From the sequence record PQ613263: 64,000 nucleotides of DNA; one strand, given 5' to 3'. The position numbers and the translations under genes were made by a program. Of the stretch, positions 20,918-55,610 are shown piece after piece. How positions within the stretch are numbered: position 1 is the first letter of the stretch; every line of letters starts with the position of its first letter. The DNA is from Shigella phage Moonfish. Below the pieces are notes generated by a model that did not search any database, was not told the DNA's origin, and saw only the letters and a list, made by a program, of their open reading frames with translations.

Positions 20918-21310
20918 TTAAATTGTGCAACCACCACCGTCACATGTGTTGTTTTCTGCAAAGGAAGCCAGTGCCTTAGCAGTCTCCTCTTTCTCATGCA
21001 GTACCTGTCGTAGCAGGTAACCTTCTAATTCCCAAATCTTATTGAATGCATTTTCATATGCATACCGACGACCTACCCACTCATCATAGATAGCTGGGTC
21101 AACACAGGCAGATACGCCTTCAACTTTGAAGCCATTTTCCAGGATGATAGTGCAATAGGTTACTAGGCTCAGATTAGCCAAATCATCTTCCGGGATTGCA
21201 GAAGGGTTAGCGAACCCAGACTTCACTGCATCAGCACCATTGAAATAGTAGACACTTTTGATTTTAGCTTCGATTGATTCTTTACTTACTGTTGCCATTA
21301 TTAGCCTCAT
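20918..21310 (-). CDS. hypothetical protein
   Basis: 130-aa ORF; true start may be the internal Met at MATVSK. Confidence 0.5.
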   Translation of the reverse strand: MRLIMATVSKESIEAKIKSVYYFNGADAVKSGFANPSAIPEDDLANLSLVTYCTIILENGFKVEGVSACVDPAIYDEWVGRRYAYENAFNKIWELEGYLLRQVLHEKEETAKALASFAENNTCDGGGCTI

Positions 21311-21467
21311 AGAGTGGTTTGAGTTTGTACTTAAACATGACTGCGTTGTTATAGGCTACGCTACCTGCAAACACCAAGGAATTACGTCCACGGTTATCCG
21401 TTACCTCATAGGCATACGGGGTTAAGATTAGGTCAATCATCTTGAATGTCCAACTAGTAATATTCAA
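21282..21467 (-). CDS. hypothetical small protein
   Basis: 61-aa ORF downstream of a hairpin. Confidence 0.35.
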   Translation of the reverse strand: MNITSWTFKMIDLILTPYAYEVTDNRGRNSLVFAGSVAYNNAVMFKYKLKPLYEANNGNSK

Positions 21468-21474
21468 ATAAAAA

Positions 21475-21494
21475 AGTCCATCCGAAGAGGGACT
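21475..21494 (-). terminator. putative terminator downstream of tRNA-like region
   Basis: AGTCC...GGACT hairpin with A/T runs on both sides. Confidence 0.4.
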
Positions 21495-21654
21495 TAGTAG
21501 CTTTTAATAGATAGCTGTATTTGAGCATTATAGTCTGCTCATACTCACACTCTTCTGTCGAAGAATATGTTTACAATACCTAGAGTGCCGGACTGTCTTA
21601 CCGGCATTGTCTTTAGAGTGCTAAGCAATCAGGACTATGTTCTCTATTAATGGG

Positions 21655-21728
21655 TGCCCACTACTGGATTTGAACCAGTGACTTTCCGATTATTAGTCGG
21701 TTGCTTTCCCCGTCTAAGCTAAGCGGGC
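21655..21728 (-). tRNA. tRNA gene (manual fold); anticodon loop CUAAUAA, anticodon AAU if numbering is canonical (Ile-type; A34 is unusual)
   Basis: Folded by hand on minus strand: acceptor GCCCGCT/AGTGGGC (one G.U), D-stem GCTT/AAGC with GG in D-loop, anticodon stem CCGA/UCGG, perfect T-arm ACTGG-TTCAAAT-CCAGT, discriminator A. Confidence 0.6.
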
Positions 21729-21929
21729 ATTGATAGGTGAGTCCTGCCAGGCTTTAACTGGCTCCTTCTTCGCAATCCTTACATACCCCTACATAATTAT
21801 TGCGTTAAGCTTTTTTGTTTAAGTTTAAGTGAAGGCGTTCTTGCTGACTCATAATTAGGTGAGGCGTTTGACGAATGACTAGTTCGTTACTACCTCGTTG
21901 TTTGCCATAAGTACCTGGCGACTTCAGGT

Positions 21930-22260
21930 AACGGGGGATGGAATCGAACCACCAGTACTAAGTCTTATTCGTGCACCAAGCACGCTAGTGGATTACTCCA
22001 CCGGAGGGAATCGAACCCCATCTACTTCACCAGACCCGTCTTAATTCTTACAATTAGTGAGAACACTTACCCTGGTTTAGGAGTTGAACCTAATTGGGGA
22101 GTAGTTTACGAACATTTTTCACTCCTTTCCCGGTAGCCAAGATAAGAGTTCTCACGAATTGGTTCCGGCGTCTGGACTCGAACCAACGAGAGAAGTAGCG
22201 ACCAACTGCACATGCCTACGTGCTACCCCGACCATTATAATAGGAGGGAGGGGACGAGTC
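21930..22260 (-). other. cluster of four additional tRNA T-arm-like motifs (GGTTCGAnTCC) at ~70-95 nt spacing; canonical cloverleaves not confirmed by hand
   Basis: Minus-strand T-arm-like stems/loops centred near 21945, 22012, 22085, 22179; one is followed by ...CGCCGGA-A-CCA; I could not pair acceptor stems or find 7-nt anticodon loops. Confidence 0.3.
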
Positions 22261-22632
22261 CTCCCTTCATACCCTATGTTACATGTAAGACCTAACATCT
22301 CGATGCTGGATGAATAGCTTAATAAACTATCCGACATTATTGGTTAATGTTGTGCTCAACACGAGCGTTAGTTGATAAGGGATCTGAAGCCTTATCCCAA
22401 AGAAACCAACCTTTGGGATATAGCCTAAGATTCAGAAATGGCCCCCATAGGAGAGGCCATTGATTAACCCGAATGTTGCTTTACATTTTCTGAGATAACC
22501 CATTCTTAAAATAGTCTGTCTGACGGATGGGGAGCTACCCCTAGCGTCAGTGCCATACGGCAAAGATTAAGTTAAGAAAGGTTATGATAGGAGTTCCTAT
22601 CTCAAAGGATTCTGACAGAACCCTTCACGATA

Positions 22633-22803
22633 TTAACTACTCTTTTTCAGTGCTTCTACTTCACCATCTTTATACCAAGCGTATGGTACTAAGACTTTGC
22701 AGCCTTCTGAATCAATGTGGAATGCTTTGTTTCCTTCAACAGGTTCTCCACCCACGAAAGAACTAACCTTTCCATTGAGCCAGTGAATAGTAAATTTGTT
22801 CAT
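22633..22803 (-). CDS. hypothetical small protein (56 aa, below track cutoff)
   Basis: ATG with weak GAGG RBS; ORF MNKFTIHWLNGKVSSFVGGEPVEGNKAFHIDSEGCKVLVPYAWYKDGEVEALKKSS read from the sequence. Confidence 0.3.
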   Translation of the reverse strand: MNKFTIHWLNGKVSSFVGGEPVEGNKAFHIDSEGCKVLVPYAWYKDGEVEALKKSS

Positions 22804-23034
22804 ATTAACCTCGTTTGAGCCAATCCCCTTCGGAGAGTATTAAAGGGGACTGGCTCGGTTGTTGTTATTCTGGCGGCTTGTCACCACCGTGTTTACCACT
22901 GCATTTCCACAGGATAATGACAGTGATGATAAAAGCTATGTATGGAGCCGACACGTCTATAATCCTGACTAGTAGTAACATCAGGACTATAAACACTACC
23001 ACACCTAGCAGCAGCTTCTGAGCCACCTACCAGA

Positions 23035-23511
23035 TTAACTACGTTTCAGGCCAGCGAACAGTGAAGGTTTCGCAGCAGGTTTCTCTGCTGGTTCTTCAAC
23101 CTTAACTTCTTCCTGCACAACTTCTTCTTGTGCTTCTGGTTCAGCTACTGCTTCTTCTTCTACAGCAACTTCTACTTCAGGTTCCGGCGTAGAACTCTCG
23201 TTCTGACCACCAGTAGAGGTCTGGGTTTCCTCTTCCTTTACCTCTTCAGCCTGAGCTTCTTCTTCTTCCTCTACAACTTCCGGTTCTACCGGACGATGTT
23301 TGGCTTCCTGAGGGTTCTTACGAGGACGACGTGTCTTCTTACCTACCAAGGGTGGAGTATCATCGTTATGATTTACCTCTTCGTTGATACCAACGGAGGC
23401 TGTACCATCTGCATTGATGACAATACTAATGTCACCAGCAAGATTGATTTGATCATCTACATAAGCCTGTACAGCAGCTTCTACTTCGGACTGGTTCAAA
23501 ATGATTTGCAT
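23035..23511 (-). CDS. acidic Glu/Pro-rich protein of unknown function
   Basis: 158-aa ORF; C-terminal two-thirds dominated by E, V, P, A repeats (…EEEEEAQAEEVKEEETQ…PEPEVEVAVEEEAVAEPEAQEE…). Confidence 0.6.
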   Translation of the reverse strand: MQIILNQSEVEAAVQAYVDDQINLAGDISIVINADGTASVGINEEVNHNDDTPPLVGKKTRRPRKNPQEAKHRPVEPEVVEEEEEAQAEEVKEEETQTSTGGQNESSTPEPEVEVAVEEEAVAEPEAQEEVVQEEVKVEEPAEKPAAKPSLFAGLKRS

Positions 23512-23512
23512 G

Positions 23513-24067
23513 TTACGCCTTTAATAATTTAATGAGGTTCTGGAAAGATGGGAGATTTACACCAGCGTGGATTGCACCGATTGCATCAGCCAAGTGCTCA
23601 TTCTTATTTAGAAGTTTGCCTTTCTTATCAGTGAGCCAGTTGGCTTCAGGATAAATGGCATGAGCAGCACGAATCATCGTGTCTTTGGATGCAGTCTTAT
23701 CACCGACCAGTGCAAGTTTGTTTTCAATTGGGGATACTTCAAAGATTGGACAACCCAATGCACGAAATGCACCGATTAATCCTACGCATACACCATAGGA
23801 CTTCATACCGTTAGCGGACTGAGAGCCTACTGGTACTTCTACGAATACTGCTTTAGCAGACCGTAACCATTCCTCACAACCAAGAAACAAATCATGAGAG
23901 GCTTGTATATCTTTGGAGTTGGTTCGAACTTGTTTGTTGTGGTCAACTTCAGTTTGAACCAGTTTAAGTTCGACCTGCTCGAAGACGCCGGACTCAATGT
24001 CCAGCATCCCACGAGCTAAACCCCAATTGCGGAGACTAATATCTGCACCAACAATTGGGATTTTCAT
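23513..24067 (-). CDS. RuvC-like Holliday junction resolvase
   Basis: 184 aa; N-terminal IVGADISLRNWGLA resembles the RuvC ILGIDPG motif; C-terminal HLADAIGAIHAG resembles the RuvC D-A-x-D-A-x-A-I signature. Confidence 0.6.
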   Translation of the reverse strand: MKIPIVGADISLRNWGLARGMLDIESGVFEQVELKLVQTEVDHNKQVRTNSKDIQASHDLFLGCEEWLRSAKAVFVEVPVGSQSANGMKSYGVCVGLIGAFRALGCPIFEVSPIENKLALVGDKTASKDTMIRAAHAIYPEANWLTDKKGKLLNKNEHLADAIGAIHAGVNLPSFQNLIKLLKA

Positions 24068-24864
24068 TATTTCTTACCGAACAGTGATTTACCACCTGCC
24101 GGAGCAGGACCAGTGTTAGCACCCGGTTTAGGAGGCAAGCCACCTTTACCATTACCACCAGCAGAACCCTTGGTCTTATCACGGGTTTTACCTTTGTTCT
24201 TTTCCAACCATGCTGTATGGAATACAGCCAGTTCTGGGGTCAGTTCTTTCTCAGCCTTCTCTGCTTCCTGAGCCTCGATGACTGTGACCAGCAGTTCCGG
24301 GTGAAACACTTTCTGAATCTCGTTTACTTCACGAGTTTCACCAGAGTCAACGTAACCGTTGTCACCTTTAACCTGCTTAGCTTCCAGAACCTTTTCCAGA
24401 GCAAAGGTAACAGTCTGACCTACCAGTTCAACTGGAACCATGACAGACTTGTTGGTTTCTGCTTTCAGGTCAAAGTCATAGACTTTAACAATCTTCTCTT
24501 CGAAGTCAGCATCCGGCAGTTCATTACCAGTAGCCATCAGCATCATGTCATTAATGACAGTGTAACCAGGCAGGAAGTATTCTTTACCGTTCTTCTCGTA
24601 AGTCGGCTTGTTGCCTTTAGCATTACCAGAAGTGAAGTACACCTGGGCACGGAACTCACCAGCATCATTTCCATCGGAACCTTTCAGGTTTTCGATGATT
24701 AACTGCATCCAGTCTGCACCGGAGTCAGCTTTACCTACGTAAGCTACTTTTACAGTACCGGTATAGATATCAGTTTCTTTGGCACCGAAGCCACCACCAC
24801 CAAGGGAGTCTTTTGCAGCTTCAACGTTTTTGGTTTTTTCTTTCAAGTTACCGAACAGTGACAT
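24067..24864 (-). CDS. single-stranded DNA-binding protein (N4-type SSB candidate)
   Basis: 265-aa ORF with Gly-rich basic C-terminus, located between resolvase and ATPase genes; size and position match N4 SSB (inference, not motif-based). Confidence 0.5.
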   Translation of the reverse strand: MSLFGNLKEKTKNVEAAKDSLGGGGFGAKETDIYTGTVKVAYVGKADSGADWMQLIIENLKGSDGNDAGEFRAQVYFTSGNAKGNKPTYEKNGKEYFLPGYTVINDMMLMATGNELPDADFEEKIVKVYDFDLKAETNKSVMVPVELVGQTVTFALEKVLEAKQVKGDNGYVDSGETREVNEIQKVFHPELLVTVIEAQEAEKAEKELTPELAVFHTAWLEKNKGKTRDKTKGSAGGNGKGGLPPKPGANTGPAPAGGKSLFGKK

Positions 24865-31023: not shown

Positions 31024-32694
31024 AGGCTCTGAAGCCGATAACCTGCCGGAGACCGTGCCTCCCAAATTGAGATTACCGAACAGATAGTGCCAGCCATCCG
31101 GTCCCGGTTGGGCGTTCCTGAAAGCTGGTATAAAGCTAGTAATAATCTTATCCACGAGCTTATAGTCGATAAGAGCATTGAGCAGTTCCTTAACATCTTC
31201 ACTCTGCGTATGTGTACGCAGTGCTTTAATAGTGTCACCATCAGTAGCTGGTTGCTTGCTCTTAGTAAGACCAAGAACTGGTAAGCCAATAAAATCAAAT
31301 AACAATTTCTGTAACTGTGGACCGGAGTTAGGATTGAACTCGATGTCACAATCAGCCAATGTTACCTGCTTCTTCTTAAGCTTGGTATTCTTATCGTCTA
31401 CCCATTCCTGACGAAGCATCAGGGTGAAATTCTTCATGAGCTTAGACTCACGAATAGTTTTCAGAGCCTGGTTCCTGTCAGTTTCCATTTCCTCAGCTAC
31501 TTGGTTAACGGTTTCCATATTCATTGGCATACCGGTTAACTGCATCTGAATAATGTCTTCACAGGCAGGTTTAAAGATGTTGTTATAAACATCCAGTTGG
31601 TCATCAGCAATGAGAGTATCCCAGTGCTTCTCGTAGGTGTACCACGTACACAGTCCATCGATTAGGTTGTAGCGTAACAATTGCTCATTAGGAATAAGAC
31701 AAATGTCTTTGATATCGTCTTGAGCATAGTTACCGGCATACTCCTGAGCCTGGTCTTTCAGACTAAGGTGATTACCAGCACAACTGTTAGTAGCCAGATA
31801 AGTGATTAACTTAGTGCAGTCCCAGTTACGTAGCATGACGTTCATGCCATACAGTAGACCTTCTGTATCAATCAGGTTATCCATGAATAACTGATAGATA
31901 AGTACATACACGTCATAGCTAATGTTGTGATACATCTGCCGTTGGGTGTACTTAATGAAGAACTCACGTAACAGGTTACGGACAATATCATTTCTGTTGA
32001 TACGCCCATAAGGTGCTTCAGTAGCTCCCTTAATTGGCTCGTAGTCCACATTAAAAGCTATGCCTTGTGTCTTACTCCAACAGAATGTAATCGTTCCTAT
32101 ACCGGCGTTATAGTGCTTTAAACCGAATGATTCGATGTCTATAGCCAATGGCTTATTCATCTCCAGCAACTGGTCTAGCCAGGCTTTAATCTCTTCGGGG
32201 GTATCTGGGTAGGCCTCAAACTCAATGATTCCCTGACCTGGTTCAGCATACTGTCCACGTATGTGGTTAAGTAGTGCATCCATACCCTGAGCAATTTTAG
32301 CTCTCACTACAGGTGGGTCATAAAAGACCTGTCTGTAGTTAGGCGTATAGATAACCTTCTGCTTACCCCATACTGAGTCACAAACGTAGCCGAGGTTGGC
32401 CTCTGCTTTAGCTTCTTTAGTCAGTATTTTAAAGTAATCAGAATCGGTACAGATGACGTACTGAGTTTCTGCATCATCCAGTACTTGTTGCAGTTCCTGC
32501 TGTATGAACTCCTTAATCTCCTTTGCAGGAGTCTTCTTTTTGCCGGGGGCAGAGTGAAGTTCAAGGAAGATAAAATCTTCCATGCTTAGGTCATATGGCA
32601 GCAGGTAGGTTTTAATCATCTCCTCCCTTCGGATTTGATGACCGAGGATAGCAATAGGATATTTACCCGTATCCTGAGAGGTGATGTAACGCAT
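31024..32694 (-). CDS. DNA polymerase (family A) 5' exon: 3'-5' exonuclease and N-terminal polymerase part
   Basis: Contains Exo I LAIDIESF; ends ...TVSGRLSASEP (then KINWAI* if unspliced), i.e. truncated in the middle of the conserved RLSSSDPNLQNIP motif. Confidence 0.8.
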
Positions 32695-32703
32695 GGCTTT
32701 ACC

Positions 32704-33234
32704 TTAGAAAATCAGATGGGAAGCTGCATAGTACTCAATGGAAGGTAGAATCTTCTCATACTGCTTGATTGCTAAATCATCACCAGCAAGAGTCCAAGCT
32801 GCTTCACGAGTACGCTGTAGTCCTTTGTACTGACCAGTCTGGTCTTGAGCTACCAGACATTCAGGTAGAGCATCACGTACATCCTGATAGGACATACAAC
32901 CACGAACCAGACGATATACAGTCTGGTTCACAAGGTGTACTTCCATAATCAGACTACTGGAGGCTTTCAGATACTTGTCCATTGCTGGCCATAGTTCTGG
33001 ATTAAGTGTTAATCGTTCGCCGTAGGTTGGGGGTCTAGAAGCATTAGAACGTTGATAGAACTCCCCCTGATAAAGGAATCCAGCCGATATATCTACACCG
33101 TTGATACGGTCATTCTTATCAATGATACTGTTTAGCACACCATCAAGACGAACCAGTTCTGCTAAGAACAGGTGTTTGACTATCTCACTACTATTGGCAA
33201 CCTGACCAATAGTCGTTGAACCAATCTGAGGCAT
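32704..33234 (-). CDS. hypothetical protein
   Basis: 176-aa ORF between helicase and polymerase genes. Confidence 0.5.
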   Translation of the reverse strand: MPQIGSTTIGQVANSSEIVKHLFLAELVRLDGVLNSIIDKNDRINGVDISAGFLYQGEFYQRSNASRPPTYGERLTLNPELWPAMDKYLKASSSLIMEVHLVNQTVYRLVRGCMSYQDVRDALPECLVAQDQTGQYKGLQRTREAAWTLAGDDLAIKQYEKILPSIEYYAASHLIF

Positions 33235-37463: not shown

Positions 37464-40127
37464 TTAATTACCTTTCAGTTTATTTAGACGATTACGGTAG
37501 AGGGACTTAAACCCAGGAATATCATCTGGATGTTTCTTGAGATACCTGACTAAGCTAGTCAAGTCCAGGTTTTGCAGGATGTCATCCTTATTCCAGCTAT
37601 AACAAAATAAAGCTTTGTACTTGCTGAGTATTTCGTAATGTTTATGATTACGTGGGTTAGTCATTGTCATGTATGGCACTAAGTCTTCCTCTGACTTAAT
37701 GTAACCCATTTCAATGAGCTTCCTCTCTTTACTCCGATGATTTCTTAGGAAATCATACGCCCATTCATACTCTGGATTAAAAATCAGATTTTGTAGTGGT
37801 TTGAATGTTAGACCAAGAATACCGAGGATTTCCCAATACTCTCTGTCATCCAATCCTATGTACTCAGTAATACCAATACGCTGTTCAGTGACATACTTCT
37901 TGAATCCCTTACTGGAAATAACAGACATCAATTCACTGAGTCGAATATCGTCAATGTGAATAGCACCACGTCGTTTAGCCTTGTTAACTTCGATTTGATT
38001 GCGACAGACAACAGTTTCTGCTTTCATCTCATCGGACAACTCATACCATTTCCACATGGTTCCAATCCGGGCATTATCTGGTCTACCAGAACTAACCTGA
38101 TTGGCTAGTACGTAGTACTTAGGCTGTTCCACTTCAACGAAACCAGATTTCTCATGGTAGATTGGGTCAGCAAACTCCTTCTGGATATACGGTTTATATA
38201 TCCGATCTCCATTTTCATCTCGTACAAGAGTAGTACCTAGTACTGCATTCAATGAAATTAGAGCATTGGTTTTACCCCCTGCTTTGGTTTTATTGTCAGC
38301 TAGTGTCTTAGCTCGATTCTCGGCAGCTATCCTAGCTTGCTCCTTACGGAAGTTAGTTGGTTTGTCCCACTCATTGTATTGAGTAAGGTCAATTACCCGA
38401 TAACCCATAGCAGTGAATTTAGCTACAGCCTCCTCTGCTGCACCCTTCTTAGAACTAACGTTGTCCCACTCATTGTATTGAGTAAGGTCAATTACCCGAT
38501 AACCCATAGCAGTGAATTTAGCTACAGCCTCCTCTGCTGCACCCTTCTTAGAACTAACGACGTGAACAAAAGCTGTACGCTCCAGGTCACCTCGGTTGTA
38601 CTCAGGGAAGTATGAGAAAGAGTCTGCACAATCAGATAAACGGCGAGTAACTACAACGTTCTTGGTAGTGAATATACCAATACCTAGATGGGAGTGATAA
38701 TCCACCTTAAAGTAATCAGTAAGTTTACCTTTCACCAGTTTGGTACAGCTACCCTGGTTCATTATGTAACCTGACCACTTAATACCAGTAGCTTTTAAAG
38801 CAGCAATCTGAGGTAAGTGCAGATGGCGATATACGAATCCCTGGAATGGATAGCGTGTACCATTTGCACGAGTATGCTTAAGAGCACTTATAGCCTTACT
38901 ATACAGTTTTTTAAGACCTGCATATTCAGGACGAGCTAGTAATGCTTTATTGGATAAATTACGCCAGTGTTTGATGTGGTGCTTGCGTTGCTTAGCCCAT
39001 AAACTAGAGGACATATAGCGTTGAACAATAGGGTCTGTAACAGCAAGTAGGAAAGGTGGATACCTCCAGAAGCAGGAAGAAGCTTTAGAAGCATATTCTT
39101 CAATCTGCTTAATAGCTTCAGGAATCTTAGCCTTAATCTCTTTCTCCATACGGTCTACTAAATCTACACATAGAGCAGTAATACCATCGTCGGTTAACTT
39201 CTGGTTAGACAGGGTTTCTCGACTAGGAGCAATAGCTAAGGTATCCGGTGCAGCCTGAACTACTAAATTAGAAGCACCAATGATGTTCATAAAGTTGAGA
39301 ATAAGACCTACAGCTTCTTCACTAGCTGGGCTGGATACTATTGGGTACATTACATTACCGTAACGAATAAAGATGTTACTGCTACCCATATAGTTTTGAT
39401 ACCAGCTATCAGACATATCATATGAACCAGGTTTAAATGACATACCTAACGTAGGTAATAAAGTGTAGTCACCTTGTAGAATACTATTACCCGTTTCTTC
39501 ACGAGTGAGTTTGGGGGTACTAAGCTCAGCCTTAATTTCACCGTTAAACACAATAGATTTGATGTAGTGAATAAAGGTACTTACGTCGTGTTTACCTAGC
39601 TGGAATTTAACTTCCAGACCGGATTCCTCAGTAGGAATACCAGTAACGATAGGAACAATACCTGGTTTACCATCATTCTCTATTGCAGCTTTAGCTACGT
39701 TATATACCGACATCTTTCCTTGGTTCCACGAAGTAACCTGGAAGCTATCTGTATAAGCGAATGGGGACTTACATCCCAGACCAAATCCACCAGTAACACT
39801 ACTGTTGGACTTCTTGGTAGATGCACCATAGACACCATAAATGGAACCAATGAGTTCATCTGGGATACCGTTACCAAAGTCACGGAAGGTAATAAAGTTG
39901 TCTGTATCAATAGTAATACGGATAGGAGTATCAGTCTTACCTGCTTCAATATGAGCATCCCAACTGTTACAGATAGTCTCACGGACTACTGCCAGAGTAG
40001 GATTGTTATATAGGGAAGTACTTAATACGTGAAAGAATGCCGGGTCATCAGAGATGCCAAAGGCGATTGCTTCTTTACCACCCAGTGTCGCTGAAGTGGC
40101 TGATTGATTAGTATCTGCAACTAACAT
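37464..40127 (-). CDS. rIIA: rIIA-like protein with N-terminal GHKL (histidine-kinase-like) ATPase fold
   Basis: 887 aa; N-box ETICNSWDA, G1 box FRDFGNGIPDE, G2 box GGFGLG; contains an in-frame 33-aa tandem duplication. Confidence 0.7.
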   Translation of the reverse strand: MLVADTNQSATSATLGGKEAIAFGISDDPAFFHVLSTSLYNNPTLAVVRETICNSWDAHIEAGKTDTPIRITIDTDNFITFRDFGNGIPDELIGSIYGVYGASTKKSNSSVTGGFGLGCKSPFAYTDSFQVTSWNQGKMSVYNVAKAAIENDGKPGIVPIVTGIPTEESGLEVKFQLGKHDVSTFIHYIKSIVFNGEIKAELSTPKLTREETGNSILQGDYTLLPTLGMSFKPGSYDMSDSWYQNYMGSSNIFIRYGNVMYPIVSSPASEEAVGLILNFMNIIGASNLVVQAAPDTLAIAPSRETLSNQKLTDDGITALCVDLVDRMEKEIKAKIPEAIKQIEEYASKASSCFWRYPPFLLAVTDPIVQRYMSSSLWAKQRKHHIKHWRNLSNKALLARPEYAGLKKLYSKAISALKHTRANGTRYPFQGFVYRHLHLPQIAALKATGIKWSGYIMNQGSCTKLVKGKLTDYFKVDYHSHLGIGIFTTKNVVVTRRLSDCADSFSYFPEYNRGDLERTAFVHVVSSKKGAAEEAVAKFTAMGYRVIDLTQYNEWDNVSSKKGAAEEAVAKFTAMGYRVIDLTQYNEWDKPTNFRKEQARIAAENRAKTLADNKTKAGGKTNALISLNAVLGTTLVRDENGDRIYKPYIQKEFADPIYHEKSGFVEVEQPKYYVLANQVSSGRPDNARIGTMWKWYELSDEMKAETVVCRNQIEVNKAKRRGAIHIDDIRLSELMSVISSKGFKKYVTEQRIGITEYIGLDDREYWEILGILGLTFKPLQNLIFNPEYEWAYDFLRNHRSKERKLIEMGYIKSEEDLVPYMTMTNPRNHKHYEILSKYKALFCYSWNKDDILQNLDLTSLVRYLKKHPDDIPGFKSLYRNRLNKLKGN
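38362..38559. repeat. perfect 2 x 99-bp tandem duplication inside the rIIA-like gene
   Basis: 38362-38460 and 38461-38559 are identical base for base; encodes duplicated NVSSKKGAAEEAVAKFTAMGYRVIDLTQYNEWD. Confidence 0.9.
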
Positions 40128-40154
40128 TTATTTACTCTCCAGTTTAAATGTTGC

Positions 40155-46089: not shown

Positions 46090-46123
46090 TTACTTACTCT
46101 CCTAAAGGTAATGGAATTACTAA

Positions 46124-47861: not shown

Positions 47862-48988
47862 CTGCCAGAGGCTGTCATCCAGCTTACCCGCAGAGAACTC
47901 TTGTCCCAGTACCTGAGATAGGATGAAGCCCAGCAAGTCACTCTTAGCAATGTCAGATAGAATCTGATTGTACTGACGACGTAGGTCATTACCATAGTTA
48001 GGATGACAACGAAAACCATTAGTTAAACGAGTCGTTAGCTCGCCCTTACCTTCCATGATTAACATGAAAGCCATATGTAGCATCTGCTTGTTTACGAGCA
48101 AGCATTGCCTCCTCAAGTGTGTCGTACGTACCCAGACCGATCTGTTTGCGATTGACTGTGATGTGTGCCTGAAATCTACCAGAAGGCAGTATTCTCACAC
48201 CGTTCACTTTGCTTGAAGTATTACTAGATAAACTCATATTCATCTGGTTCTGTCTGCTGGTTACATTTCTCAAATTAGACCAACGATTGTCGTTTCTAGT
48301 ATGATTGATGTGGTCCACCTGGTTAGGTGTTTCCCCAGTTTCCATTATCCAGATTATTCGATGTAGTAAGTACTCTTTGCGGCCCAGGCTAACGGATAGA
48401 TACCCTTCTTTGTGAGGATACCCCACAATTGTTCCGGCTAACCCACTGGCAGAGTCATAACGATGAGTCACTAGCCCACTATCCCTGTCATACCTTAAAA
48501 CCTTCTGCAAAGATTCTTGGGTAATATTACCCAAGTTTATTATTAGGTTTTTACAGGTAGAGCATAGATGACCTATTGGACTCTTTCTAGCATCATAGAA
48601 GTTACAAACAAACTCATTAGAGCATTGCTTGCAACTACAGATAGCTGTGTACTTACCAGTTTTACGTAATATTTGAGAGTTATCTAACATATGGATTCCT
48701 TAGTAATTTTGCATACAATTTCAGATTGTATCCTAACCAAGGAAGTAAGTCTCCAATTTTCACTGGAGTATCGGACTATATCATCACCCACTAATCAGTG
48801 GGGCAAGGCGCTTGGGTGGTCACTTGACTCACCTACTCTACTCACATACGAAATGCTTTCGATAGTCTCTGAACCTTCCCTCATAGAGGGCTTGGCTGCT
48901 GATTGGCATATCCATAGGACTTAGCTTTCCAGCAATTCACCTTGTTTTCGACACGGATTACTCCGTGAAGGATCATTTATGTTTAATC
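47862..48988 (-). mobile_element. probable group I intron (~1.1 kb) in RNAP II large-subunit gene, carrying an HNH-AP2 endonuclease ORF
   Basis: Upstream ORF stops right after ...VLTVHD, 9-10 codons short of a T7-like C-terminus that is encoded 1.1 kb downstream in frame-compatible position; splice after caU with intron ending caG satisfies U/G group I rules. Confidence 0.55.
48046..48690 (-). CDS. HNH endonuclease with AP2 DNA-binding domain (intron-encoded)
   Basis: 214 aa; own AAGGAA RBS; HNH_3-like GYLSVSL...HRIIWIMETGETPNQVDHINHTRNDNRWSNLR; C-terminal AP2-like GVRILPSGRFQAHI...GTYDTLEEA. Confidence 0.8.
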   Translation of the reverse strand: MLDNSQILRKTGKYTAICSCKQCSNEFVCNFYDARKSPIGHLCSTCKNLIINLGNITQESLQKVLRYDRDSGLVTHRYDSASGLAGTIVGYPHKEGYLSVSLGRKEYLLHRIIWIMETGETPNQVDHINHTRNDNRWSNLRNVTSRQNQMNMSLSSNTSSKVNGVRILPSGRFQAHITVNRKQIGLGTYDTLEEAMLARKQADATYGFHVNHGR

Positions 48989-50014
48989 ATGTACAGTCAA
49001 TACAGGGAATGGCTTCTTAGGTAAAGTGTCCAGCATGTCTGCTACTACCTGACGGTCAACCATAGCAATAGTGCCTGGGTCGAGATAGTCGATAATAGAC
49101 ATAGATAAGAATCCAGACTTCTCGTAGTGTTCCCACAAGGTCTGTACCATTTCCATGTTACCTTCAATCTCCCCATACTCTGCTGGGCCTGTGTCGCAGA
49201 GTTCACGAACAGCAGCAACCAGGTTAGCATCGAAGTTACAACGACGCAGCATCTCGCGTACCACCATCCCATCAATAGAGTGGGTGATGTTAGCAGAGAG
49301 CATACGAGTCTTCTCTTCAGTACCCTGAACCATGCGGGTAATGTCGAATGGTTTACCTAAGAAGTTAACAGTCTGTACTTCTGGAACCATGACCTTAATG
49401 ACGGCATGGAAGTTGTCAGACAATACCCATACGTAACGGTTAGCATCCGGGTTACCACATTGCAGTAAGAACTTGTTCAATGCCCAAGGCCCACTAGCAA
49501 CAGTTTCCATTACATTCTCAAAAGTCTTGAGACGGATACCCTCACCGAATACTTCTTTAGGCTTAGCTTCTGAACCGTAGAATGCAGTCATAACTGCCTG
49601 CTTAGTGTCACTACGCTTAATACGAGATGCTTCACCAAGGATGTCCAACATCTTGTGATAGATAACTGTATAAGCATCACGACGTAATGGCTTACCGTTT
49701 TCACCCATGTAGTTAACTACGTTACACAGTTCAGCAGCAGAACGGTCACCAGTCAGGCAAGCCAGTAACTGCAAGCCTGATGATGTAGCATCCAGAGCTA
49801 CGGCATAGCCAATAGGCTTACCGGCTTTCATATCTTTCCATGCGTTTACACCTGCATAGAACAATGCGGATTCTTCAGCTTCATCTACCAGATTAAGCAG
49901 GTTAGCTTCGTTTTCATCGAACCAGCTAATACGTTCATCCCATGTTTTCTTATCCAGACCCATGTTATTCGCAATATCAATCTTTAAATATTCTTTCGCT
50001 GTGAAAAGCTGCAT
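48989..50014 (-). CDS. phage RNAP II large subunit (N4 gp16-like, T7-like catalytic half), 5' exon
   Basis: LDATSSGLQLLA (T7 motif A FDGSCSGIQHFSA), KQAVMTAFYGS (motif B), ITHSIDG (T7 H784 region), RELCDTG (motif C). Confidence 0.8.
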
Positions 50015-51417: not shown

Positions 51418-51450
51418 CGCATATTCTCCTAAATGTTATTAATAACCAAA

Positions 51451-51465
51451 AGCTGCGGAGCAGCT
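51451..51465 (-). promoter_or_regulatory. conserved GGA-triloop hairpin, candidate vRNAP-type early promoter
   Basis: AGCTGC-GGA-GCAGCT (6-bp stem, 3-nt loop) ~40 nt upstream of the RNAP II small-subunit start; identical 17-mer recurs at 54508-54524. Confidence 0.45.
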
Positions 51466-51470
51466 ATTAC

Positions 51471-51851
51471 CTAAAAGGTTCCCCAGTAGATATAGTCATC
51501 TCCCAGGATAGGTTTCCAGGCTTCGTCAAACATGACGTTGCCTGTAGCATTTGCAAACATAGGGGCAATGTCCTTGTCTTCATAACCAGCCAGTCCACAA
51601 CCAATGCGTGTTACTTTAAAGTCCCACTCTGGGTGTGCTGCTGCATACAGGATGAATGCTGCTACAAATTTCTCAATATCCTCTAAGGACATAGTCTTGA
51701 TTGACTGGTTTTTGGTTGGGATTGCATAGCTGCAACCATAATGGCCTACGCCCATACCCCAACGAGCACCGTGCTTCTTATATGCAACTTTCGCTGCACC
51801 AGCACCGTGACGGCCTGCTAAATTACTACCGAATACTAATATCTCTTTCAT
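51471..51851 (-). CDS. hypothetical protein with Gly-rich loop after first beta-strand (Rossmann/SLOG- or macro-like?)
   Basis: 126 aa; ILVFGSNLAGRHGAGAAKVA motif. Confidence 0.45.
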   Translation of the reverse strand: MKEILVFGSNLAGRHGAGAAKVAYKKHGARWGMGVGHYGCSYAIPTKNQSIKTMSLEDIEKFVAAFILYAAAHPEWDFKVTRIGCGLAGYEDKDIAPMFANATGNVMFDEAWKPILGDDYIYWGTF

Positions 51852-51855
51852 GCTA

Positions 51856-52176
51856 TTAATCCTTTGGTTTAAGAACTTGGAATGCGAACACAGGACGTTT
51901 ACTACGCCACTGGTTCATAGCTAGTTCACTAGCAGGAGAGCCATCATGTAAGTCATATATGAATGTAATCATATACTCTGGTTCCTCTGGGAAGTTCTCT
52001 GTAGAGAACGGTAGACCTGCTTCTTTTAATACAGGAACCAGTGGTGATTCAGCTGCACAATAAATAATGAACTTTTCGCTGAATGCTTTACTGGTCTGAG
52101 ATACGTAATCAATATTACGCATCATCTTATCGACATCAGTAAATGTATTATCATGTACTACTACGATGTTATTCAC
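51856..52176 (-). CDS. hypothetical protein
   Basis: 106-aa ORF. Confidence 0.45.
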   Translation of the reverse strand: MNNIVVVHDNTFTDVDKMMRNIDYVSQTSKAFSEKFIIYCAAESPLVPVLKEAGLPFSTENFPEEPEYMITFIYDLHDGSPASELAMNQWRSKRPVFAFQVLKPKD

Positions 52177-52430
52177 TCTACTTTCTCCAGGGTTAGATAT
52201 ACTGTATTCATTTGAGGCACATAATCACAAAAACCAATTTCCTCTTGTCTGCCACTAGACTTCCAAATACAGTTTTCAGTTAGTTTAGGCTTTCTACTAA
52301 ATCCAATTAGTGAGGCATTCTTACTCTTCTGAGGACGAGGTAATAAGGCTACATATTTAACCCATAATGGGACTTCAATAGTTTGTCCCATATAGTTAAA
52401 TGATTTAGTTACAGGGAATGTAATAATCAC
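52173..52430 (-). CDS. hypothetical protein
   Basis: 85-aa ORF. Confidence 0.4.
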   Translation of the reverse strand: MIITFPVTKSFNYMGQTIEVPLWVKYVALLPRPQKSKNASLIGFSRKPKLTENCIWKSSGRQEEIGFCDYVPQMNTVYLTLEKVE

Positions 52431-52790
52431 TTAGTACCTCACCACTATTACTTTCTTATTATTTAACCGAGTCATGATATCAATCATGTGTTTGGTTCCT
52501 TTTGACTTACCATCCCAGAATGCTACAAGAGTATCTGCGAAATTAGCCATTTCAGTATTACGTACATAACCTGCACGCTTACCTAATCTGTCCCAGTCAG
52601 CAGGAAATTCATGTATTATCATCCCTGCCTCTTTCCAGAGATTATATGCTGTAATGTCTGCTCCTCTAGCCATACCACATACAAGTTCAGGTGAATCAGT
52701 TATTTCACCAGATTCTACTAGCTTCTGTAATTCAGCAATCATGCGATTAGTGTCAATGAAGTCACGTCCACCAGCTACAATTAGTCTCAT
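52431..52790 (-). CDS. SLOG-superfamily (DUF2493-like) nucleotide-binding protein
   Basis: 119 aa; IVAGGRDF ... GMARGAD ... FWDGKSKGT pattern characteristic of DUF2493/SLOG proteins (pattern-based). Confidence 0.5.
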   Translation of the reverse strand: MRLIVAGGRDFIDTNRMIAELQKLVESGEITDSPELVCGMARGADITAYNLWKEAGMIIHEFPADWDRLGKRAGYVRNTEMANFADTLVAFWDGKSKGTKHMIDIMTRLNNKKVIVVRY

Positions 52791-53008
52791 TTCTGATACC
52801 CCTGAATATAGTTAATACGGCGAATACGTTGAGTAGATGCCTTAACAGCCATCTGATGATTTTCTTCTTTGTGCTGATTTTCCAGCACCTTAGCCCATTC
52901 TTCCTGGTTCCGTTGTTTCTGTAATATACGACTACAACGTTTATGATTGGCAACTCCACGTCCTTTCTTACAGACTGGGCATATACCATAATCGTTTGAG
53001 TACATCAT
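52787..53008 (-). CDS. small Cys/His-containing basic protein (zinc-ribbon-like)
   Basis: 73 aa; CPVCKK...HKRC. Confidence 0.4.
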   Translation of the reverse strand: MMYSNDYGICPVCKKGRGVANHKRCSRILQKQRNQEEWAKVLENQHKEENHQMAVKASTQRIRRINYIQGYQK

Positions 53009-53313
53009 TGGCTTAAAGCCTCCATTAATATTTTACGAATAACGTTAACATCAGATTCAGTACCAATTAAACCAACAGGTTTCTTTGTACTATCTGTGAC
53101 AAAGGATGCAATCCTTTCCATCTCTGCTGTAATTAATTTGTCACCACTAATAAGACGATTACGAAGGTAAGCCTCATAAGCTACCTCTATATCTTCTACT
53201 GTGGTTCTTTCATTACGAGTGAATGGATTACTTAATGGGAAGGGTAAATGTACCCGTATATTCCTGTCAGCTACCTTAGCTAAGTGAGGGAGTATACATA
53301 CTATTTCATTCAA
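53005..53313 (-). CDS. hypothetical protein
   Basis: 102-aa ORF. Confidence 0.45.
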   Translation of the reverse strand: MNEIVCILPHLAKVADRNIRVHLPFPLSNPFTRNERTTVEDIEVAYEAYLRNRLISGDKLITAEMERIASFVTDSTKKPVGLIGTESDVNVIRKILMEALSQ

Positions 53314-53512
53314 GATTCTTTCTCCTATTTAAATACATATCTAAACTATTCAAGAATAAAAAATAGGAGCCTCCTATTGGAGGACTCCTTACTATTTGAT
53401 ACATGGGTGATTGAAGGTAACAATCTTACGTACTGGTTCAGATGTCTGTTGCTTAGCAGCCAGACGCCCTTTCATCTTTTGTACGTCAGCTTTGGTTCCC
53501 ATGATTAATGAC

Positions 53513-53686
53513 TTACGCATGTTTAGTACTCCACATAAAGTTATAAGGTTTACCGTTACGTACAATTCTTACAGCCATTTGATAACCATTGATTTGTACA
53601 ACACCATAGTGTCTCTTTTGGTCACCAGTCTGGTTCCGTCTGAAGATACACTCTTCAATAGCATCATTGATATTAGTGAACATCAT
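53513..53686 (-). CDS. hypothetical small protein (57 aa, below track cutoff)
   Basis: AGAGGA RBS then ATGATG; its stop overlaps the start of a further 41-aa ORF (53395-53520). Confidence 0.3.
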   Translation of the reverse strand: MMFTNINDAIEECIFRRNQTGDQKRHYGVVQINGYQMAVRIVRNGKPYNFMWSTKHA

Positions 53687-53871
53687 TGGTTCCTCTTTGC
53701 AAACTCTTCTGCTTGTTGCTTGTAGTACTGAGTCATTGCTTTCTTGTGTTTAACACTAGCAATGAGACACTCGATAGTAACGAATGGCAGCTTAGCAATA
53801 AGCAGCCACTTTTGACGTAACTTCCAGCCTAGAAAGTAGAAGATTACACAGAAAGCGATGAAGTCTAACAT
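53683..53871 (-). CDS. small membrane protein
   Basis: 62 aa; hydrophobic N-terminus FIAFCVIFYFLGW. Confidence 0.35.
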   Translation of the reverse strand: MLDFIAFCVIFYFLGWKLRQKWLLIAKLPFVTIECLIASVKHKKAMTQYYKQQAEEFAKRNQ

Positions 53872-53982
53872 GGTTATTTCCTCTTCTAAGATAGCTCTAA
53901 TGGGATAGGTTTTAATTTTAGACCCCCTTCGTCGAAAGAGGCGTAAAAGTTAAACTTAGCTTATCGCATAGTTAAAATAAAA

Positions 53983-54002
53983 GGACTCCCCGAAGGGAGT
54001 CC
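53983..54002 (-). terminator. intrinsic terminator (minus strand)
   Basis: GGACTCCC-cgaa-GGGAGTCC hairpin with T-run on the minus strand. Confidence 0.55.
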
Positions 54003-54011
54003 AGTTGTTGA

Positions 54012-54398
54012 TTAGAAAGTCAGTTTACGAGCATATTTATTCTCATCGGCAGGAATAGATTCTTCCTGAGCCTTCACGCGTCTTAACTGAACTTGCAGGT
54101 TAATGATACCTTCTTCACCTGGTTCCAGGTTCTGAGCATATTCGATTAACTGTTCCAGCAAATCGTTCTGTGCACAACGCATAGCACGGAAGTCAGCATT
54201 GCTGCTATTAGTAGGCAGTGCTTCCTGAGTATCCAGTGGAATACCAGTAGGCAGAGAGATGAATTTCTCATCATCAGAGCCTTCATTAGCAACATAACCA
54301 ATGTTCAGCCAGAACTGAGCCTTAGGCTTAGCAGCTTTAGTTTCAGCAGTGGTAGCAGCAACGTTAGATTGACCGAAAGTGAATTTTTGAATAGACAT
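54012..54398 (-). CDS. hypothetical early protein
   Basis: Likely start at MSIQKF (GGAG RBS 8 nt upstream); the longer track ORF (to 54497) would begin inside the promoter-proximal leader. Confidence 0.5.
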
Positions 54399-54508
54399 TT
54401 TGTACTCTCCAGATAAATGATTGTTTGATTGATGGGTTTGTCTGTCGGTGACTAAACCCAAGAAAAGACTTAGGATTTCAATGATTAGTGGATGCATTTA
54501 CGTCCTCA

Positions 54509-54523
54509 AGCTGCGGAGCAGCT
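54509..54523 (-). promoter_or_regulatory. conserved GGA-triloop hairpin, candidate vRNAP-type early promoter
   Basis: AGCTGC-GGA-GCAGCT, identical to the element at 51451-51465 including one flanking A on each side. Confidence 0.45.
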
Positions 54524-54527
54524 ACTT

Positions 54528-54731
54528 TCAGACCGACTGCAATACTGACTTATCGTGAGGTAAGTCCTCAAGGGAGTTGAATACTTCTTCTGTGCTATCC
54601 AATCGGATACCAATGGATGGATCTTCAACCATTACACAGTTGTAATCAGTTGATTCATTTACTTTTTGTAACTCAAATCCACCATGTACAAAGAACTTTT
54701 CACCATCTTTAACGTCAACAAATGTAGCCAT
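54528..54731 (-). CDS. hypothetical small protein
   Basis: 67-aa ORF. Confidence 0.4.
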   Translation of the reverse strand: MATFVDVKDGEKFFVHGGFELQKVNESTDYNCVMVEDPSIGIRLDSTEEVFNSLEDLPHDKSVLQSV

Positions 54732-54785
54732 TTTATTACTCCAGTAGTTATAGGGATACCCAATAGAAGCGGAGCTTCTTGGTTT

Positions 54786-55139
54786 TTAAGACAAGCGTTT
54801 AAGTAATTCTGCCTTAGCAGACTCATACTCTTGTTTAGCTTTAGTGAGGTCAATGGTTGACTCACCCCAGTGAAGGATATCTATTGTATAGGTTGTAAGA
54901 ACATCGACTGCATCTTCGAAGCGAGCCAGTAGTTCTTCCTTATCAGGACCATCGAATTGTTCCCATTGCCATACATAACCGGATAACTTAACTGTTTCCC
55001 CTTTCTCAAAGTAAGGTTCTTCTCCAAATAGGAAAGTAGAATCTTCAGTTAATCGGATATGTTCTCCTTCCAATTCTCCTACGATAATTGTTCCAATAGG
55101 GATGTCAGAATTACCCCTGATACAACGGAATTTAGTCAT
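54786..55139 (-). CDS. hypothetical early protein
   Basis: 117-aa ORF. Confidence 0.5.
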   Translation of the reverse strand: MTKFRCIRGNSDIPIGTIIVGELEGEHIRLTEDSTFLFGEEPYFEKGETVKLSGYVWQWEQFDGPDKEELLARFEDAVDVLTTYTIDILHWGESTIDLTKAKQEYESAKAELLKRLS

Positions 55140-55200
55140 GATTTTCTATCCTAGAAGTAGATAGTTATCTACTTAGTCTATCTATCTAATGTTTATAAAA

Positions 55201-55220
55201 GGAGACTCCGAAGAGCCTCC
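55201..55220 (-). terminator. putative terminator/attenuator hairpin
   Basis: GGAGACTC-cgaa-GAGCCTCC imperfect hairpin; weak T-run. Confidence 0.35.
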
Positions 55221-55232
55221 ATATTTGATTTA

Positions 55233-55553
55233 CTATTTAGTCAGGATGTCGATTACTTTTGAATATTCTGCGTTATAGATACGAGCGTTCTCTGAATCTT
55301 TGCAGAATTCTTCGATACTTTTCTTACGCATAGTCTCGTTCATAGCTGTTTCTTCAGCTAATTTGTTTACGAATGTATGCATTTCTAATTTAGTACGGAT
55401 GGCTTGTTTCTCTGCCATAGTAGATACATATGAATTAAGCATACCTACTGCTTTAGTAGCTGTGCCGAATGTATCTGCAACAGTAGTAGCAGCTGAGTTA
55501 ACAGTACCCAGTAAAGTTCCTGCGGTCATACGTACAGTAGCGGTAGTAGTCAT
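55233..55553 (-). CDS. hypothetical early protein
   Basis: 106-aa ORF downstream of the hairpin at 55596-55610. Confidence 0.5.
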   Translation of the reverse strand: MTTTATVRMTAGTLLGTVNSAATTVADTFGTATKAVGMLNSYVSTMAEKQAIRTKLEMHTFVNKLAEETAMNETMRKKSIEEFCKDSENARIYNAEYSKVIDILTK

Positions 55554-55595
55554 GATGATAGCTCCAATAGTTGATGATAGGACGACATGTCCATA

Positions 55596-55610
55596 ACATG
55601 CGGAGCATGT
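55596..55610 (-). promoter_or_regulatory. GGA-triloop hairpin, candidate vRNAP-type early promoter
   Basis: ACATGC-GGA-GCATGT (6-bp stem, 3-nt loop, same C-GGA-G core) ~45 nt upstream of the 55553 start. Confidence 0.45.

Follow-up and report, generated by a model that had tools for sequence, protein, structure and literature searches.

The 64,000-nucleotide (nt) stretch analyzed here, referred to as the window, comes from Shigella phage Moonfish (sequence record PQ613263), a G7C-like N4 relative within the genus Gamaleyavirus (Schitoviridae). The analysis was computational, using sequence comparison and RNA folding, and concerned the interval 22340-23034, in which all genes lie on the minus strand. 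Two conserved structured elements were found in this interval: a non-coding element of about 280 nt (22354-22632) and an intercistronic stem-loop (22817-22856). On balance, we favor reading the ~280-nt element as a structured non-coding RNA specific to Gamaleyavirus that is made in gene sense, is released with the neighboring tRNAs and acts through its fold, with the stem-loop as a 3′-end element. The stem-loop is best read as a separate, older RNA structure common to N4 that marks the 3′ end of the message of a small open reading frame (ORF), ORF53.

Fold of the ~280-nt element

RNAalifold and single-sequence folds agreed on seven helices within the element (P1-P7). The two structured elements and the predicted helices of the first were as follows:

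22354-22632, minus strand: conserved structured non-coding element, candidate ~280-nt RNA in gene sense, defined by folding, conservation and substitution pattern
22604-22626, minus strand: P1, 10 bp with a triloop
22586-22601, minus strand: P2, predicted helix
22495-22585, minus strand: P3, three-way domain including P3b (22551-22562) and P3c (22520-22550)
22472-22487, minus strand: P4, predicted helix
22437-22461, minus strand: P5, predicted helix
22383-22436, minus strand: P6, predicted long hairpin of ~21 bp
22354-22366, minus strand: P7, predicted helix
22817-22856, minus strand: intercistronic RNA stem-loop, 15-bp stem including G-U, 10-nt loop AAUACUCUCC at 22832-22841

A 288-nt stretch covering the element folded at -101.6 kcal/mol, against -71.4 ± 5.0 kcal/mol in 200 dinucleotide shuffles (z = -6.0), and none of the 200 shuffles folded as well. 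Two hairpins within it had been named in the original prediction, a reading of the letters of the window that also listed a 14-bp-arm inverted repeat and two short ORFs; all of these features were located, with coordinates off by 1-3 nt at most. The arms of the first hairpin (ATCCCAAAG at 22394-22402 and CTTTGGGAT at 22411-22419) belong to an imperfect repeat with 21-nt arms (22382-22402 and 22411-22431), and those of the second were AATGGCC at 22437-22443 and GGCCATT at 22455-22461. The description of 22340-22600 as lacking a plausible ORF held for the longer stretch 22340-22632, which is non-coding and carries no ORF that survives in relatives.

A perfect 7-bp hairpin between GAUAAGG and CCUUAUC (22374-22380 and 22390-22396, minus strand; within or just after P6) could also form. 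By competing with the 3′ strand of P6, it would give a possible alternative conformation.

Conservation and substitution pattern

Conservation across related phages, proposed as a check in the original prediction, was complete: all 55 matching Gamaleyavirus records kept the element, at 92.6-96.7% identity and a coverage of at least 92%. The 2.7 kb around the interval were 90-93% identical to G7C, pSb-1, PhAPEC7 and approximately 50 other Gamaleyavirus genomes. A blastn "distant" search against 50,697 phage records gave matches only in Gamaleyavirus. Neither the 5,426 E. coli genomes searched nor 185,579 species genomes contained a match to the element, which is therefore not host-derived. Scanned for exact 20-mers, IMG/VR gave eight matches, and a metagenome scan returned 15 contigs with the element; all were G7C-like.

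Nucleotide diversity (pi) was calculated over 27 distinct sequences of the element. It was 0.042 in the element, while at third codon positions it was 0.108 in gp46, 0.173 in gp47 and 0.128 in gp47.2. The element was thus 2.5-4 times less diverse than flanking third codon positions, and 7 times less diverse than the adjoining 52 nt downstream (pi = 0.31), which shows it to be under purifying selection. Five relatives had lost most of gp47.2; their deletions ended ~12-30 nt short of the element, which stayed intact.

Substitutions followed the predicted fold. Variable columns made up 22 of 172 paired positions vs. 29 of 89 unpaired positions (Fisher p = 2.4e-4). Common polymorphisms fell in the apical loops of P1, P3c, P5 and P6, in the P3 internal loop and in linkers, with the exception of pair 103/109, which changed from G-C to U-G in four sequences; every common polymorphism was therefore either unpaired or compensated. 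Pair 227/250 changed from U-A to C-G in two sequences, and a further seven one-sided changes kept pairing. Overall, the apical loops drifted while stems, junctions and single-stranded linkers were nearly invariant, a pattern that argues for action through the fold, as a protein-binding or scaffold RNA, over a seed-pairing small RNA (sRNA).

Taken with its position, these features suggest how the element might be made and used. It would be produced in gene sense, either as the non-coding tail of the operon or from a late promoter of its own, and the host RNases that excise the neighboring tRNAs would then free it as a stable RNA. It would work by its fold, as a protein-binding or scaffold RNA, and not through a single short antisense seed. 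Its transcription, processing, stability and action in trans, as well as any partner, are thus what we infer for a candidate molecule.

Several results weigh against this reading of a predicted ~280-nt RNA. Covariation within the element was thin: double changes occurred in 2 of 95 predicted pairs, with an alifold covariation term of -0.1. The reason is an identity of 93% or more among all copies, and the fold therefore rests mainly on thermodynamics and on the placement of substitutions. Low diversity could also stem in part from recent recombinational spread in a mosaic region. In 78 loci around gp46 homologs, an nhmmer profile gave no match in N4, in KP8-like phages or in L029, the nearest outgroup, and a calibrated covariance model (R1, covering P1-P3) gave none over N4, KP8-like, L029, LUZ7 and other loci; the element is thus genus-specific and the comparative support shallow. 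Neither a sigma-70-type promoter nor an intrinsic terminator was detected on either side of the element. The opposite strand folded equally well (z = -6.2; alifold energy -83.5 vs. -84.7 in gene sense), so energy does not decide the strand, and a few changes (alignment columns 247 and 255) broke gene-sense pairs that would be G-U on the other strand. The gene-sense fold had 86 pairs vs. 74 on the opposite strand, and 167 gene-sense G-U cells in P1, P5 and P6 corresponded to A-C mismatches on the other strand.

An invariant TAATAT box was seen overlapping the gp47.2 stop codon; the match at its -35 position was only three of six.

Known families

An Rfam scan, also proposed in the original prediction, was run and gave no credible family in the interval. 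At the gathering threshold, Rfam 15 matched only a tRNA (21655-21728) and a group I intron (48751-48994) in the whole window. At E-values up to 10 over 21400-23200, the interval matched only two microRNA models, whose 17.8-19.1 bits fell far below their gathering scores of 99-100; these were set aside as chance hairpin matches. Families including tRNA, tmRNA, group I intron, 6S, T-box, Y RNA-like, ROOL/GOLLD and small ribozymes were all below threshold there. ARAGORN called a single tRNA (21651-21729) and neither tRNA nor tmRNA in 22340-23034; the T-loop motif GTTCRANYC was absent from 22354-22632. No account of an RNA element in Gamaleyavirus turned up in the literature search, and a transposon-mutagenesis preprint made no mention of phage N4, Schitoviridae or Gamaleyavirus. 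The element is most likely an undescribed phage non-coding RNA, placed just upstream of the tRNA genes.

The group I intron (48751-48994, minus strand; Rfam RF00028, 91 bits, E = 5e-22) lies in the early/middle gene region.

The intercistronic hairpin at 22817-22856

The second element lies 8 nt past the ORF53 stop codon and 13 nt ahead of the gp47.2 ATG. It had been described as an inverted repeat with 14-bp arms and one mismatch. The arms were confirmed at 22817-22830 and 22843-22856 (93% complementary); the supposed mismatch is a G-U pair on the minus strand.

Covariation of the hairpin was assessed with 17 distinct versions from G7C-like phages, L029 and KP8-like phages. In total, 98.4% of cells paired, and compensatory double changes were seen in 8 of 15 pairs; none of 500 shuffles matched this. 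Compensated stem segments included CCCC/GGGG, GGGC/GUCC, GUGC/GUGC and AGAG/CUCU. Sliding the register by one reduced pairing to 51-55%, and slid registers overall gave 24-55%. The opposite strand would pair in only 83.9% of cells, there being 38 gene-sense G-U cells, which indicates that the selected molecule is gene-sense RNA or single-stranded DNA. The loop positions UACUCUC were invariant. The hairpin was also present in KP8-like phages, and N4 carries the same loop on a different 9-bp stem directly after its ORF53 homolog.

The hairpin is followed by AAACGAGGUUAAUAUG, with no U-run, and the intrinsic-terminator scan of 21300-24100 made no call there or in the helices of 22354-22632. Termination at the hairpin by the T7-like N4 RNAPII without a U-run is possible. 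The hairpin is probably a leaky terminator or a 3′-end stabilizer, with its invariant loop read by a specific partner.

In G7C (L003, 2960-3530) and in ZQ2 (L017), a free-standing HNH homing-endonuclease gene, gp47.1, occupies the hairpin loop at the point corresponding to ~22838 in the window. The TAA stop codon of gp47.1 is built from the hairpin loop (GAUAAACUCUCC), with another full copy of the hairpin located upstream of the inserted gene.

Alternative explanations for the ~280-nt element

Action in cis only, without any function as a free RNA, is a possible but doubtful explanation. The element would then be a structured 3′ untranslated region or spacer that shields the ssb-gp47 mRNA from tRNA processing; the same tentative standing covers its variants, namely entry sites for RNase E or RNase P, a block to 3′-exonucleases, and leaky terminators or anti-terminators by which N4 RNAPII would meter tRNA transcription. 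Such a role fits an element that follows the last protein gene and precedes the tRNA array, all on one strand, and for which no promoter or terminator of its own was detected. The upstream hairpin is clearly of the intercistronic-element class, and the homologous operon of LUZ7 shows sequential leaky termination at hairpins. Processing spacers, however, seldom need ~270 nt of near-invariant sequence that includes single-stranded linkers, and N4 and KP8-like phages handle the same mRNA-to-tRNA junction without the element. Furthermore, the element was invariant, whereas many relatives had variable or chimeric downstream tRNAs or had lost them, which argues that it is not there to serve the tRNAs.

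A function at the DNA level is unlikely. Under this explanation the region would serve as an origin of replication or a site for priming, as a signal for recombination or packaging, or as the region recognized by a homing endonuclease, acting via hairpins extruded from single-stranded or supercoiled DNA. Folding was equal on both strands, the element lies inside the replication-gene cluster, and N4-type vRNAP promoters use DNA hairpins (PMC4496689); the region is also a recombination hotspot, with the HNH gene inserted 200 nt away in G7C and ZQ2. No location of the N4 replication origin was found in the literature. The interval itself lacked iterons, direct repeats and any AT-rich island, its skew did not change, and neither P1 nor the 22817-22856 hairpin fits the vRNAP promoter pattern. 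The gene-sense G-U cells of P1, P5 and P6, read as A-C on the other strand, also argue against DNA hairpins. Co-conversion should have homogenized gp47.2, which is closer to the HNH site, at least as much as the element, but gp47.2 was more diverse, and most carriers of the element lack the HNH gene.

It is very unlikely that the element is a decayed remnant of a tRNA, intron or mobile cassette with no current function, seemingly conserved through recent recombinational spread. The adjoining 21900-22236 is rich in tRNA fragments and chimeras, the gp47-gp48 island is mosaic among relatives, and the high identity of all copies implies a small time depth. A remnant would not account for a diversity well below that of synonymous-type sites on both sides and of the downstream 52 nt, for substitutions that avoid paired positions, or for independent gp47.2 deletions that stop just before the element; it would also be expected to leave some tRNA, intron or other Rfam signal, and none was seen even at the relaxed E-value.

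That the element encodes one or more very small proteins is highly improbable, although ORFs of 38-43 amino acids (aa) exist and are annotated as hypothetical in Mimir124, Bas96, Bp4 and 24-32N: 1-nt indels broke or truncated the 43-aa TTG ORF of the PHANOTATE-based Mimir124 and Bas96 annotations (22432-22563, minus strand) in 9 of 27 distinct sequences, its C-terminus changed in further ones, the 38-aa plus-strand ORF survived in the window only, no reading frame was common to all 27 sequences, substitutions followed loops and bulges without codon periodicity, and candidate peptides had no match in PHROG. With its frameshifts and no PHROG match, the coding reading was rejected.

A complementary octamer in the hairpin loop

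The hairpin loop 5′-UACUCUCC-3′ is the exact complement of GGAGAGUA. In gene sense, GGAGAGUA occurred only as a Shine-Dalgarno sequence, before the gp2-like RNAPII cofactor gene (54398), the gp24-like ATPase gene (46089) and a gene at 40127; the sites were 54403-54410, 46095-46102 and 40133-40140, respectively (plus-strand coordinates). In N4, the same octamer precedes gp2 (internal ATG), gp4, gp18 and gp24. It is the commonest GGAG-type Shine-Dalgarno octamer in both genomes, yet it makes up just 3 of 37 such sequences in the window and 3-4 of 32 in N4. Over both strands there were five matches vs. 2.4 expected. CTCTCC/GGAGAG was depleted across the window (9 vs. 28.7 ± 4.8 expected), and in the early/middle region gene-sense GGAGAG occurred only as part of the extended Shine-Dalgarno GGAGAGUA of the three genes. 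P5 of the ~280-nt element also contains CUCUCC.

There is an outside chance that the hairpin, made with the middle transcripts, acts in trans as an anti-Shine-Dalgarno RNA that shuts off a small early regulon, and that both RNA elements form an RNA-based control layer. The ~280-nt RNA would then be a genus-specific elaboration, or else an unrelated new class of protein-binding phage RNA. Since the octamer was only modestly enriched, this role is kept as speculative.

Genomic setting and small genes

On the minus strand, the order of features was: ssb, gp46, gp47, ORF53, the hairpin, gp47.2, the ~280-nt element, the tRNA island, gp48, gp49 and a convergent vRNAP gene. Judged by gene order in annotated relatives, the interval is the distal end of the N4-type "middle" replication operon. 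It falls in the gp47-gp48 gap, where the tRNA genes of N4-like phages reside. The protein genes within and next to the interval, the first three placed by gene order from annotated relatives, were:

24067-24864, minus strand: ssb (gp45)
23513-24067, minus strand: RuvC-like gp46
23035-23511, minus strand: gp47
22865-23026, minus strand: ORF53, encoding a 53-aa hydrophobic protein, GTG start 8 nt past the gp47 stop codon
22633-22803, minus strand: gp47.2-like ORF of 56 aa, GAGG Shine-Dalgarno sequence 7 nt upstream

ORF53 belonged to phrog_19025 (E = 5.4e-9; residues 1-42 against positions 2-43 of 61 in the profile), the family to which the same gene in Mimir124 is assigned (phrog:19025), and also matched phrog_15123, annotated as "membrane protein". 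Hydropathy indicated two hydrophobic segments, at approximately residues 4-20 and 27-40, and a charged tail. G7C-like phages, L029, KP8-like phages and N4 all kept the gene, with conservative exchanges among I, V and L; its diversity was low (pi = 0.028). The N4 homolog encodes 55 aa from an ATG start two codons earlier (N4 32132-32299; L031 7015-7182). A 38-aa hydrophobic ORF with a ribosome-binding site had been proposed at 22865-22981. That frame exists and is hydrophobic, but it is only the C-terminal part of ORF53 and has no Shine-Dalgarno sequence; its ATG, internal to ORF53, is not conserved (CTG in L103 and ATC in N4), and the residues upstream of it are conserved as protein.

The N4 RefSeq record is blank between gp47 and gp48. 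The ORF53 homolog, the hairpin and four tRNA genes (Asn, Ser, Thr and Pro, within N4 32451-33130) were found there.

The 56-aa ORF belonged to phrog_14773 (E = 5.3e-42; residues 1-56 against positions 1-56 of 56); its annotated names are gp47.2 (G7C, St11Ph5) and PhAPEC7_53 (PhAPEC7). Sequence searches found no Pfam relative and no significant PDB relative. Its diversity at first, second and third codon positions was 0.040, 0.069 and 0.128. The five relatives in which it is largely deleted included PhAPEC5, IME11, 24-32N and ZQ2, so that gp47.2 appears from these genomes to be dispensable in nature.

The original prediction had counted both small ORFs as unannotated; in fact, both are already hypothetical proteins in some relatives (G7C gp47.2, PhAPEC7_53, Mimir124 and Bas96) and belong to known PHROG families. 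The 56-aa ORF was present with its Shine-Dalgarno sequence as described, and its product is not hydrophobic. The suggestion of regulatory RNAs or small membrane peptides was accordingly borne out in part, for a stretch that behaves like a selected structured RNA, a covarying hairpin and one hydrophobic, membrane-type peptide, and not for the 56-aa product; a "regulatory" role, read from the sequence, is that of a candidate.

Downstream block and tRNA island

A second conserved block lay downstream of the ~280-nt element:

22237-22300, minus strand: GGGAGG...CCUCCC hairpin followed by UCCUAUUAU(AAU), directly before the first tRNA or tRNA remnant

The block might be a terminator, a processing site or a -10-like box. 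The 52 nt between this block and the RNA element were hypervariable (pi = 0.31 against 0.11). In St11Ph5, pSb-1 and ECBP1, an intact tRNA-Ala(CGC) begins ~12 nt past the block. The only intact tRNA of the window was tRNA-Ile(AAU) at 21651-21729.

In 21900-22236 (minus strand), four T-loop motifs (GGTTCGATTCC twice, GGTTCAACTCC and GGTTCGAGTCC) were seen in tRNA-sized pieces that no tool accepted. One piece, at ~22170-22233, contained the 5′ two-thirds of the tRNA-Ala(CGC) of St11Ph5, pSb-1 and ECBP1 with a different 3′ acceptor strand and is therefore a recombinant pseudo-tRNA. Relatives with odd A34 tRNAs (Ile-AAT, Cys-ACA) were also observed.

A 145-nt element at 22042-22185 (minus strand) was 86% identical to N4 32909-33053, between the N4 tRNA-Thr and tRNA-Pro genes, while neighboring protein genes were 68% identical. 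Its fold contained a 25-bp stem around a GGAGU...ACUCC hairpin and a T-arm-like hairpin (UAGG-UUCAACU-CCUA), with compensatory differences relative to N4. It received no ARAGORN or Rfam call and may be an aberrant tRNA-like or Y-RNA-like molecule.

Comparison with known systems

The closest parallel by position, and the best outside support for the favored reading, was found in LUZ7, an N4-like phage of Pseudomonas. Its orf69-orf70 gap yields abundant transcripts of <250 nt (sRNA1-3) detected by ONT-cappable-seq, at least one of which apparently arises by processing, and its gp64-69 operon shows stepwise leaky termination at hairpins (PMC9163698). The gap is non-coding, folded at z = -6.15, and occupies the same slot as the ~280-nt element: after ssb, a gp46-like gene and orf68-69, and before orf70-72 and a convergent vRNAP gene. 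It differs in having no tRNAs and no homologous sequence or structure (nhmmer and covariance model R1), and the LUZ7 sRNAs were seen experimentally while the element is only predicted. The relation would thus be one of analogous position and not of family membership. The LUZ7 gp64-gp69 hairpins resemble 22817-22856 in being stable and placed between small genes after ssb; they give stepwise 3′ ends with read-through. Unlike the LUZ7 terminators, 22817-22856 has no U-tract, and its loop is conserved across genera, which a simple terminator does not need.

In T4, the stable RNAs C and D (species 1 and 2) are structured non-tRNA molecules of ~120-140 nt that lie on the same strand in the tRNA cluster and are matured from tRNA precursors by host RNases. 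To our knowledge, their function has remained unknown since their discovery. T4 belongs to another phage family, its RNAs are approximately half the size of the element, no sequence relationship is expected, and co-processing with tRNAs is only suggested for the element.

ROOL and GOLLD are Rfam families of large, highly structured non-coding RNAs of phages and prophages that often lie by tRNA genes and were first recognized purely from conservation and folding. They are 500-800 nt long and come from other bacterial lineages; with no match in Rfam 15, the element falls outside both families.

N4-type genomes are marked by short hairpins whose loop is sequence-specific, and 22817-22856 shares this feature with the vRNAP promoters. 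Those promoters have a 5-7 bp stem and a 3-nt loop (GC-TCC-GC on the coding strand) followed by ...TNTGG, and are found at the early end of the genome (PMC4496689; PMC6950046, Table 1). An identity as vRNAP promoter was rejected for both structures: the stem of P1 is 10 bp long and its loop is GUC/GUU/GUA, and 22817-22856 has a 15-bp stem and a 10-nt loop. A search of the window with the pattern GCTCCGCNNNNTNTGG, allowing one mismatch, gave four sites against 0.38 expected, all in 51446-55606 (minus strand):

51446-51461, minus strand: vRNAP promoter-pattern match, GC-TCC-GC ... TNTGG
54504-54519, minus strand: vRNAP promoter-pattern match, GC-TCC-GC ... TNTGG
54760-54775, minus strand: vRNAP promoter-pattern match, GC-TCC-GC ... 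TNTGG
55591-55606, minus strand: vRNAP promoter-pattern match, GC-TCC-GC ... TNTGG

One of these lies ~100 nt upstream of the gp2-like gene (start 54398).

Significance

G7C-type N4 relatives are widely isolated as therapeutic coliphages, and their records leave this interval blank or fill it with spurious mini-ORFs. Two corrections of annotation follow: ORF53 is a real gene that is absent from the N4 RefSeq record, and the 43-aa "gene" inside the ~280-nt element is not real. If the element is a functional RNA, it would be a new family without an Rfam model, among the few structured RNAs of lytic phages that adjoin tRNA genes. Work on N4 has so far centered on its three RNA polymerases; the covarying, fixed-loop hairpin common to N4 would, if functional, offer an easily mutated handle on post-transcriptional control in this phage. 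Together with the LUZ7 sRNAs, a functional element would point to a conserved "RNA slot" at the end of the replication operon in Schitoviridae.

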